From Planctomycetota bacterium (lineage in GTDB: Bacteria; Planctomycetota; Phycisphaerae; UBA1845), in contig JBBTCX010000081.1 of the NCBI GenBank assembly GCA_038043045.1, positions 5,561 to 69,560 of the forward strand: 64,000 nucleotides of DNA, read 5' to 3'. The notes beneath the pieces are model-generated. The model was not told the DNA's origin. It saw nothing but the letters and a program-made list of their open reading frames with translations, and did no database searches. A program made the position numbers and the translations under genes. Shown here in pieces: positions 16,401 through 19,400 of this stretch (within the stretch, counting starts at the first letter, position 1; each line of letters begins with the position of its first letter).

Positions 16401-19400
16401 TCAGGGCGGAAGGGGAACTTCCGTAACCGCGGGCCCCGTGCTCACGGCGTTGGTCGCGGAATTCCAGATGTACGAGTTGCCGGCTCCATAGTTGAATCTC
16501 GTACGCGAGCCGCCCAACGGCGTTGCGGAATGCTCTTCGTGCTGCGAATGTCCAATCAACTCGTCCGCAACAAGCGCTTCGAACTCCGAGCCCCGGGCAT
16601 GCGCGAAATTGAAGCCCGCACCCCGCCATCGGTACTCCGTGAGCACGTGTGCGGCCCCGATTCGCGCGAAGTTTGGTGAATTCGCCGCGGTCTCCTGCCA
16701 GTCTTTGAGCCAGACAGTCCCTGCCCGATTGAGGCCTGGGTTTTCAAAGAAGGTATCCCAGCCGCCTCCCGGGCCGATCACGCTGCCGTGAGAGTCGCGG
16801 ACGTTCATCGTGACTTTTACTTTCGAAGAAATGAGTTCCCGCGTGTAGGCTTGGAGCTTCGGACTTGCGGGATTCGGATTCATCAGCCCGTCCGGATTCT
16901 CTCGAATCTTCCCAAATTCGTCGACTTGAAGGTCCAGATCGGAAAGGCGGCCCAACAAACTGACAAAATCGCGCTGGATTTCCTGCGCTCGGGTCGAATC
17001 ACCAAGGGTTCGCCCAATAGCGAAAAGTTCCATTCCGTCGGGGTCCAGATTCGCTATTGGGTTGTTCCGGACATACGCATACACGTTGAGATCCTGAGGC
17101 TGCGAAAGGAATCTGGGAAGATCATCTTCGGCGAGCATACCCGGATTCGTGTATTTGGGATCGAGGGTCAGGAATCTTGATAGTCCGGCGGCCAAATACC
17201 GGGCCTCGAAATAGTGCAAATCGGACTCTTCATCCTTCTCCTTTTGCGTGAAGCCATAGTCTTCACCGAGGATGGGGTTCGGCTTGTGAGAATGTCGCGA
17301 GAGACCGAACGCATAATTGGCACTCTCTTGGAGAACCGCGCCGCGCTGGTTGGTAACTACATGGACCGATCCCAGGTGATCGCCATGGTAGAACGAAATG
17401 TCGCGGTCTTCCGTGGCGTCGGACTTCAGCATCGATTGGTTTGATAACTCGAACCACAGCGCCGTCGAAGTGGGCAATGAGTCCGGGGCATCGTTCAAGA
17501 ATGCCAGCAAGAGCCGATCGGACGCGAACCAGCGAAGCTGCGACGGCTCGTGGGCGCGAATACGACCGTCGCTTGAGAAGAGATGTTCCGCGCGAATGAA
17601 TGGTTCGAGCCTGGGCCAGGCGAGGAGCGTTTGCCCGGCGGGGATAGCGACGGAATCTGTCGGTGGGAGATATAATCCGCTGGCTGCGACGACGCGCGAG
17701 CTCGTAACTTCCACCCAAAGAGGTTTTCCAACGGGTACGATCGCATCCGACGTCACTTCACGATAATCCGTTCCGGTCCATTCGTAGACTCTTGATTCCT
17801 TTCCAAACAATTCCTCGGAGGTTTGAAACGCCTCCACCGCAACCGTCAGGAGATTCCAGCCCTCGAACAACCAGAATCGTTGCACGCGCGTTCGCGTGGG
17901 ATCTAGCGTGCCCTTGACTCGGGCCACGCGCGTGGCGCCGTTGAACACATATTTGACCGGCGCCCGGTTGGGGCGATATTCGAAATACTGGTTGACATAA
18001 AGCGTCTGGTCGGTGTGTTTATCCTGCGTGACCAGCTTGGCGATACGCCGGTTGGAGTAGTCATAAGCGTAACGGGCATCGACGTTGCCCTTCTGAAAAC
18101 GCACCAGCCGATCTTTGAAGTCCCAGGTAAGAGTTGCGTCTTCTAGATGAGTCATGTTGCCGTTGTCGTCGTATTCGTAGACACCGCCGGCCTGGGTCGC
18201 AGTCAAGGCGTGAGGGCCTGGAGGCTGCCCGGGTAAGCGGCTGCCGCGATTCTGGGCGCCGTCGCTTCCGCCGATCGTCATGGCTCCCAGGGCGACCTTG
18301 GGTTCCGGGATGAAGCCGGGCTGACCGACGGACGGAGAGGACTGACTGAGCATGTTGCCGATCTTGTCGTAAACATAGTCGATTTGGCCATGCGCTGGCA
18401 CTCCATCGCCTGCGGGTGAGTATTTCACCTGAGTAAGGCGGTAGAGATCGTCGTATTGGAACAACTGCGTGTTGCGGCGCGGTGAACTCGCGGGAATGCC
18501 ATGCGGCCCATCGAAGGGACGGTGATCGTTAATCCGGGTGATATTGGAGACCGGGTCATACAAGTATGCATAGTTGATCAGATCGCCAGCCAACGGAGAA
18601 GCTGTTCGTAGACTTTCCAGTCTATCGTGATTGTCATAGGTGTAGGTCGTAGACCCCGCGTTGCCAAACGTGAGGTGGGAGAACTGCTCTGTGGGTTCAT
18701 AGTCGGCATTGGAAAGGATGACGCTGCCGCCTAGCCCGCCGTCGATGCTCTCGACAAAAGAGGCGACATTGTAGGAATACCGGCAACGGTCGTTGTCGGG
18801 ATAGTACACTTCAACCAGGCGATCCATAATGTCGTAGGCGAAACCGGTCTGGTAGGAAGTGAGGACGCCCAGCAAGGGATCGCGGATTCGCTTGACGATC
18901 TCGAGGATGTTGCCGCGGGCGTCATAAGCCCGATGCTCTTCTCCGGACAAGTCCTTCACGGATGCGAGGCGCCCGCCGGTGAAGCCAGCGACGCCGAGGC
19001 CACTGCCGAAGTCAACGCCGGCGGCGGGGAGATCGTAGACAAGAGTGACGTCGACGGGATCGCCCGGTCCGCCGCCCTGGTCAAGATAATTCTCGGAGAG
19101 GAGGCGGTCGGCGAAATCGTAGGCGTAGGCTACGGACTGTCCTTTCGCATCAGTGGTGCGGAGCAGGTTGCCTGCATCATCGTACTCGTAGGTCGCCGTT
19201 CCGCGGTCGGGATCGTGCAGCGCGATGTTGCGCTTGAGCGAATCATACTCCATGGTCTTGGTGTTTCCCTGGGCATCGGTGATTACCACCAGGTTGTTCA
19301 AGGCGTCCCAAGCATAACGGGTACGGTATTCCTCCGAACCGTTCCGTTCAACGACCTCCACCAACCGCTCCAAGCCGTCGTTGCGCTGGGTTTTGGGCGT

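Follow-up and report, generated by a model that had tools for sequence, protein, structure and literature searches.

The C-terminal 209 residues of a TcB-TcC-type fusion protein (here the BC protein) are very probably the hypervariable payload, or cargo, of a Tc-toxin-like BC cocoon from an uncultured groundwater member of the Phycisphaerae (Planctomycetota). The protein is encoded on the reverse strand of a 64,000-nucleotide stretch of DNA (positions 5,561 to 69,560 of contig JBBTCX010000081.1, assembly GCA_038043045.1), which we call the window. The protein has a TcB-TcC architecture and an intact cleavage motif, its tail starts exactly where similarity to its orthologues breaks off, these orthologues carry unrelated tips of similar size, and none of these proteins is accompanied by an immunity gene. 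We further propose, tentatively and at somewhat less than even odds, that the cargo is a far-diverged descendant of the zincin-like scaffold of the Tox-HopH1/Peptidase_M91 tips that would have lost its canonical HExxH...[DE]N zinc site. To the combined explanation, a BC-cocoon cargo of M91 descent, we assign a probability of roughly 45%.

Translation of the BC gene (Table 1) places the tail directly after the Rhs-core motif, just as the initial annotation had quoted it. The N-terminus of the protein looks like a signal peptide ending AFA|A (judged by eye), and an exact-protein look-up returned no record. Its N-terminal half is of TcB type, with SpvB, a beta-propeller (FG-GAP) and the TcdB middle region, and is followed by an RHS/YD shell and an Rhs core that carries the cleavage motif and two aspartates. 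The closest solved structures are the TcdB2-TccC3 fusion cocoons (E=5e-41, with the TcdB2 alignment spanning BC residues 253-775), then TcdB1 and YenB, and then the Rhs effectors of type VI secretion systems (T6SS). Residues 1856-1949 can be aligned with the C-terminal cores of Tse15 and TccC3 and, judging by this likeness, correspond to the part of the cocoon that serves as plug and aspartyl autoprotease. The PxxxxDPxG[L] motif and a catalytic aspartate pair have been tied to autoproteolysis (PMC8765631); a cut is predicted after M1949, and a second DP motif (TLDPK) upstream of PIANLDPDGM could supply the second catalytic aspartate. The two DP-motif aspartates lie 39 residues apart (window 17043-17162, reverse strand, residues 1906-1945), a spacing that is 22 in RhsA, 24 in the Psychroserpens luteolus RHS protein and 32 in a Pirellulales orthologue, which also has an insertion there.

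The cargo (22.8 kDa, isoelectric point (pI) 5.7) has neither cysteine nor a transmembrane segment. Per codon, the log-likelihood of its codon usage is +0.17 in the annotated frame and -0.30 and -0.14 in the alternative ones, and its G+C content at third codon positions (GC3) is 0.665 compared with 0.671 in the shell, so that we regard it as genuine coding sequence and not an artefact. A scan of one genome per species yielded 49 loci with related RHS proteins, the closest orthologues coming from three Phycisphaerae metagenome-assembled genomes (MAGs; loci L001, L003 and L006; 61-64% identical over the shell) and one Pirellulales MAG (L002; 44% identical). The similarity of all four to the BC protein ends at query residues 1948-1955: the three Phycisphaerae proteins share 38-49% identity with it over the last 200 residues of the shell, and their tips align at only 20-27%, with no significant phmmer match between the cargo and the orthologue tips. 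Because similarity breaks at the cleavage motif and the tips beyond it are unrelated, the cargo is a hypervariable region in the strict sense, which bears out the hypervariability that the initial annotation had asked to see among orthologous BC genes. The tip of L003, with its HELRH motif, is by sequence another uncatalogued metallopeptidase-like tip, and the other three differ from it and from one another in kind (Table 1). Directly 3' of the L001 BC gene, at 9885-10337 and shortly before the contig ends, lies an orphan fragment of an RHS-core start (…VVFYHGDHLGSAHVMTDRQGALVQEIAYYPFGEQRH…), the usual trace of recombination-driven tip exchange.

The gene downstream of the tip gives no sign of a toxin-immunity pair. 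It follows the BC stop codon (16401-16403) after a 123-bp gap that holds no terminator-like or promoter-like site, and a perfect inverted repeat, CCTGCA-GT-TGCAGG (window 16295-16308), stands just 5' of its start codon with no T-run after it. The initial annotation had described its product as secreted and dockerin-tailed; by eye the N-terminus is indeed signal-peptide-like, and the dockerin/EF-hand-like tail is a weak match (E=0.029, 15 bits) under the Pfam cut-off. In L003 and L006 closely aligned copies of this protein are encoded 3' of the BC gene, and in L002 a more distant one (27% identical, E=2e-11) holds this place, so that the loci sharing the gene carry four different tips. Since the downstream gene stays constant while the tips change, it is a fixed member of the operon and not a cognate immunity gene, in agreement with the original view that it is not of immunity type. 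No small gene lies between the tip and this conserved gene in L003 or L006, and in the window there is no other same-strand open reading frame (ORF) of at least 50 aa 3' of the BC gene, with just one 31-aa ORF after the downstream gene. A tip-linked immunity gene is thus missing, and the BC protein and the two proteins encoded upstream of it contain neither PAAR nor VgrG domains, which would indicate T6SS delivery. Published surveys make an orphan tip with no immunity gene the expected state for the TcC class (PMC7861908, PMC3482391). The missing immunity gene and the Scabin-like ADP-ribosyltransferase (ART) tip of the Pirellulales orthologue fit a payload directed against non-self cells, as in Tc toxins; they agree with the earlier proposal of a non-self, possibly eukaryotic, target in its first part, and its eukaryotic part is an extrapolation.

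By direct search the cargo proved as unrecognisable as first described. It matches no family at E<=1 in Pfam, NCBIfam, PADLOC or PHROGs, it gives chance-level matches to PDB sequences (best E=0.12, to 29 residues of gamma-carbonic-anhydrase N-termini), and it has no homologue in a word-indexed search of 5.8 billion protein clusters and no match at E<=0.001 in a full phmmer search over 1.84 billion representatives. A motif search found neither HExxH, as the initial annotation had said, nor HxxEH; ART, HNH and deaminase profiles, named there as well, had no match in the library scans, those three motifs not having been searched for individually. Three tblastn matches on plasmids all have E=4-9, and we take the one on a Persicobacter plasmid for a chance match, since the 553-aa ORF that it hits in its C-terminal region has neither RHS nor M91 features. 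We rejected a frameshifted HExxH, of which the cargo DNA shows none in any alternative frame; a pore-forming or membrane toxin, the 19-residue hydropathy maximum being just 0.45; and an HNH-like reading by eye of HEEHSATPLGG...N...N, which has no profile behind it and lies in a C-terminus predicted as all beta with no following helix. The only other occurrence of the cargo is on a 1081-bp contig (L050; Hain-H41, ERZ1292633; 2x coverage) from a Hainich groundwater metagenome, positions 1-1081 of which equal window 15808-16888 at 1079/1081 nucleotides (99.8%). This contig belongs to the same population and therefore provides no independent homologue of the cargo. It also suggests that the window came from Hainich groundwater. 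One of its two differences changes cargo N2046 to Y (ENP to EYP), and the other, which introduces a stop codon into the downstream gene, probably reflects a read error. The initial annotation had singled out conserved-looking His/Glu/Arg stretches as a possible active site; their conservation cannot be verified because no cargo homologue exists.

What the initial annotation overlooked is a weak and reproducible likeness of the N-terminal part of the cargo to Peptidase_M91/Tox-HopH1 tips. One tblastn match crossed the cleavage site, reaching query residue 1993: an RHS fragment of P. luteolus (locus L025, protein P0001) whose 197-aa tip is a Peptidase_M91 domain (PF14891, E=3e-13). Peptidase_M91 is the NleD/HopH1 family, named Tox-HopH1 by Zhang et al., who found such tips on TcdB/TcaC-type RHS proteins, planctomycetes included, and listed no immunity partner for peptidase tips (PMC3482391). 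In a single BLASTP comparison the cargo matches the P. luteolus tip at E=9e-5 over cargo residues 1-93, and phmmer against the extracted tip set ranks the same tip first at E=5.5e-4, the next match having E=0.33. A profile of five M91 tips gives E=0.011 and a probability of 4% in hhalign, a further hhalign run of the cargo against M91 gives E=0.013 and 3%, and a hidden Markov model (HMM) of eight M91 RHS tips scores 3.4 bits on the cargo, a value equalled by 8/2000 shuffled cargos. The hhalign local score of 22.1 compares with 12.6+-2.3 for shuffles (z ~4) and is equalled by 1/400. The two sequences are collinear from the first residue, DPDGM-ELFAIGR in the BC protein pairing with DPDGM(IAD)DIVIGR, LLGRLSDLDLQVDEFGKI with ADLQKLSDNTLEIDENGKV, ENPGLNRAG with YDPNLREGG, and ARIGAAHVLTEY with PYIGLAHELGHA; the patterns common to both are DPDGM-E-L-F-A-I-G-R, LxxLSDxxLxVDExGK, NPxLxxxG and IGxAH. 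The active-site helix itself can be placed in two ways. In the first register HExxH reads HVLTE, with the catalytic Glu replaced by Val and the second zinc-binding His by Glu, so that the AAHVLTEY stretch once quoted as part of a possible active site sits at the HExxH position with the catalytic Glu missing. In the second (MAFFT alignments A3 and A4) the GH of HELGH pairs with LVADELIGH, ~30 residues further, giving DExxxH; a hand tally of BLOSUM62 scores makes the two placements about equal.

Several points weigh against this reading. HExxH fails in the cargo in either register, and downstream of either candidate helix the cargo lacks the [DE]N motif of the third ligand helix (Zhang et al. 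2012; PMC3482391), its only [DE]N being at positions 44 and 96, both upstream. PF14891 does not match the cargo even at E<=1, the hhalign probability is 3-4%, and no significant database-wide match speaks for descent. The likeness is convincing just over the first 45-90 residues, the active-site helix has its two possible registers, and the M91 family was picked post hoc from the extracted tip set. AlphaFold2 models of the cargo have a predicted local distance difference test (pLDDT) of 37 from the single sequence and stayed at 42.6 with a six-sequence M91 alignment, and Foldseek with the latter, low-confidence model returned nothing from the PDB at E<=0.001, the top entry, RSV integrase at TM 0.13, being meaningless. 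On the side of the cocoon, the cargo is acidic, unlike the orthologue tips (pI 8.6-9.8); a neighbouring TcA, as in a complete ABC Tc toxin, is missing at the level of sequence and profile; and the mechanism is a prediction throughout, cleavage, encapsulation and delivery being carried over from what is known of Tc/Rhs toxins (PMC8765631, PMC6868009) and export from the look of the cassette N-termini. A tblastn search of plasmids with an M91 tip and a scan of viral contigs with the M91 profile found nothing to widen the profile. As the family is defined the cargo lies outside M91, and the likeness may be chance.

The alternative that survives best, although we consider it rather unlikely, sees in the cargo a new and unrelated toxin domain that has a fold and chemistry of its own. 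Such a domain might be a metal-dependent hydrolase that uses the His/Glu cluster DELIGHSQHEEH together with H2077 and H2093, and the M91 likeness would then be chance or convergence. The absence of any family match or of any homologue among the 1.84 billion representatives would fit such a domain, as would the weakness of an M91 signal confined to the N-terminus, the gathering of six His and 24 Asp/Glu in the C-terminal half, and the fact that the majority of TcC tips fall outside known families (PMC7861908). However, three independent methods choose the same M91 tip in the same register from the first post-cleavage residue, just 1/400 shuffles equals the real hhalign score, and the catalytic residues proposed for a new domain have no conservation behind them.

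We think it improbable that the cargo is decayed or non-toxic filler, a former protease tip that persists because cocoon assembly needs at least ~20 kDa or through drift of the locus. Its catalytic motif is broken in either M91 register, its sequence comes from a single population (the groundwater contig being 99.8% identical), its pI is acidic where the tips of all close orthologues are basic, and empty or small-cargo cocoons are poor at TcA binding (PMC6868009), all of which filler would explain. Yet the frame stays open through 209 codons with codon score and GC3 like the rest of the gene, no other frame hides a frameshifted HExxH, and the surrounding cassette is intact and conserved. An interbacterial Rhs toxin, with its immunity gene elsewhere in the genome or needless because the producer has no target, shares with T6SS Rhs effectors the RHS core and polymorphic tip and would suit the orphan core fragment of L001, as in Rhs toxin-swapping loci, but is very improbable given a BC protein with no PAAR or VgrG and with a signal-peptide-like, SpvB/TcdB-type N-terminus, the lack of a small same-strand ORF 3' of the tip here and in L003 and L006, a next gene that is the same whatever the tip, the Scabin-like ART of one orthologue, and the listing of Tox-HopH1 tips without immunity partners (PMC3482391).

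With the cargo read as the payload of a BC cocoon of M91 descent, the following course of events can be proposed. By analogy with known cocoons, the core would cut after M1949 and the ~23-kDa tail would stay unfolded within the RHS shell; the complex may then be exported, as the signal-peptide-like or lipobox-like N-termini of the cassette suggest, and the tail would be set free in a foreign cell, targeting and translocation presumably falling to the cassette partners and not to a recognisable TcA. There the tail might act through a non-canonical His/Glu metal site, with H2077/E2081 or D2105-E2106...H2110/H2113/H2116 as candidate residues, or as a non-catalytic binding domain. At 22.8 kDa the cargo exceeds the roughly 20 kDa that a stable holotoxin needs (PMC6868009). 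Roderer et al. report a pI of at least 8 as a cargo requirement (PMC6868009); because acidic natural tips exist, with 36.5% of those surveyed by Song et al. below pI 7 and the release of an acidic one shown (PMC7861908), the charge of the cargo is not decisive.

The BC gene belongs to a cassette of four genes (window 15591-30319, reverse strand). The first gene encodes a secreted protein of ~560-600 aa and the second a protein with 1900-2600 aa; the BC gene is third, and a gene for a Cys-rich, secreted product of ~200-230 aa comes last. Counterparts lie in L006 (337-15283), L003 (1173-13292) and L002 (199-16449), so that the cassette is kept across several Phycisphaerae MAGs and partly in Pirellulales; the window holds no second copy or orphan cassette. 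The first product is 58% identical to that of the same-position gene in L006 and has no match in Pfam, NCBIfam or PHROGs. The second, of 1915 aa, has a strongly conserved, apparently helix-rich C-terminal part of ~1100 aa and has orthologues 5' of the BC gene in L002, L003, L004, L006 and L007, with N-terminal parts that differ (LamG in 3/6, beta-helix in 1/6). Neither this protein nor a profile of six orthologues matches the PDB at E<=1 or contains a TcA Pfam domain, and we rejected it as a TcA at sequence and profile level; we regard it as a candidate targeting and translocation partner, possibly a non-canonical A component. All four cassette N-termini are signal-peptide-like or lipobox-like (22806-22877, 28560-28637, 30250-30319 and 16210-16277, reverse strand), as assigned by inspection of the sequence alone. 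Classical Tc subunits are not known to carry Sec signals. The conserved operon, with its signal-peptide-like N-termini and with a large, uncharacterised protein family beside the BC cocoon in the place of TcA, is a less ordinary feature than the cargo. In a bolder version, which we hold to be distinctly unlikely, the cargo would have a new toxin activity, owing either to a new fold or to a zincin scaffold whose metal site has been rebuilt without HExxH. Four proteins would form a Sec-exported, Tc-like machine in Planctomycetota that delivers the cargo to groundwater protists or to non-self cells of another kind; the place of TcA would be taken by a lipoprotein family of 1900-2600 aa whose heads vary (lectin, HAF or beta-helix) and whose C-terminal body of ~1100 aa is conserved.

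Table 1. Features of the BC locus (window coordinates unless a locus is named) and tips of the closest orthologues
Feature	Coordinates	Strand	Residues or size	Evidence or description
TcB-TcC-type fusion gene, whole	16401..22877	-	2158 aa	Translation, Pfam, NCBIfam
SpvB (PF03534)			57-222	Pfam, E=5e-23
FG-GAP (PF13517/PF01839)			~540-609	Pfam
TcdB_toxin_midN (PF12256)			623-765	Pfam, E=6e-29
RHS repeats			7 stretches upstream of core	Pfam
Rhs-associated core (TIGR03696)	17031..17312	-	1856-1949	NCBIfam, E=1.6e-14
Cleavage motif NNPIANLDPDGM	17031..17066	-	1938-1949	PxxxxDPxG[L/M], read directly as PIANLDPDGM
Cargo (hypervariable region)	16404..17030	-	1950-2158	Translation: ...NNPIANLDPDGM, then ELFAIGRTLG...TEVPLPP and stop
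N-terminal part of cargo, weakly M91-like	16755..17033	-	M1949 to ~2041	tblastn, BLASTP, phmmer, hhalign
IGAAHVLTEY	16632..16661	-	2073-2082	Pairs with IGLAHELGHA of M91 tips (MAFFT A2; hhalign global and low-mact)
His/Glu cluster DELIGHSQHEEH	16530..16565	-	2105-2116	Candidate metal site or alternative M91 helix placement (DExxxH)
Downstream secreted Cys-rich protein	15591..16301	-	228 aa if started at ATG 16277	Start codon probable
Upstream protein	22890..28637	-	1915 aa	Lipobox-like N-terminus (LAAC), HAF repeats, Laminin_G_3, CNGNGIPDDCD-type repeats
First cassette gene	28634..30319	-	561 aa	Secreted protein
L003 tip	L003 11975-12538		188 aa	HELRH zincin motif, no Pfam family
L006 tip			209 aa	Beta-rich
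L001 tip			172 aa	Alanine-rich
L002 (Pirellulales) tip	L002 ~13950-14510			Scabin-like ADP-ribosyltransferase, PF22596, E=1.4e-7

Among known systems, the TcdB2-TccC3 pair of the Photorhabdus luminescens Tc toxin (PDB 4O9X, 6H6E) and YenB/YenC share with the BC protein the SpvB N-terminus, the beta-propeller, the TcdB middle region, the RHS shell, the PxxxxDPxG core, a swappable tail of ~20-30 kDa and the lack of an immunity gene. They differ in that B and C are naturally fused here, the N-terminus is Sec-signal-like, no nearby gene has detectable similarity to TcA, and the cargo is acidic and not a basic actin/Rho ADP-ribosyltransferase. The Tox-HopH1/M91 RHS tips, such as that of P. luteolus, likewise start right after DPDGM, and the P. 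luteolus tip shares with the cargo a size of ~200 aa and an acidic pI and, at the level of a weak likeness, the sequence of the N-terminal strand, helix and hairpin and the collinear NPxLxxxG and IGxAH, whereas the cargo has HVLTE or DELIGH in place of HExxH, no [DE]N and no confident alignment over its C-terminal 70 residues. The T6SS Rhs effectors RhsA, Tse5, Tse15 and Tre23 resemble the BC protein with their RHS cocoon around a variable toxin and their C-terminal aspartyl autoprotease; the BC locus differs from them in having no PAAR/prePAAR, VgrG, chaperone or downstream immunity gene, and in its TcB-like N-terminal half. Song et al. (2021; dbTC, PMC7861908) sorted 2528 TcC tips into 171 clusters, 43 with a predicted function and 68 singletons, obtained an open rarefaction curve and predicted tips without homologues from new TcC proteins. 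The cargo resembles their uncharacterised and singleton tips, being of the same 201-400 aa class with no known domain and no homologue, but their survey required a neighbouring TcA or TcB and covered mainly Proteobacteria, whereas this locus comes from a planctomycete and lacks a recognisable TcA.

An unannotatable tip with no immunity gene is on its own the common case and opens no long-standing question. If active, the cargo would be one more payload in the open-ended Tc/Rhs toxin repertoire, and as a possible HExxH-less zincin scaffold it could show how toxin tips get rewired or retired. The locus shows that Tc-like BC cocoons occur in environmental Planctomycetota, within a conserved cassette that has signal-peptide-like N-termini and lacks a recognisable TcA, and this bears on how cocoon cargo is delivered outside insect pathogens.

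The genes flanking the cassette are of other kinds. Three consecutive multihaem c-type cytochrome genes (window 10712-15413, forward strand) run towards it; they are unrelated to the cargo, and one is a fusion with a cytochrome b561-like membrane domain. A 977-aa Ser/Thr protein kinase with TPR repeats (window 31072-34005, forward strand) is encoded divergently from the cassette.

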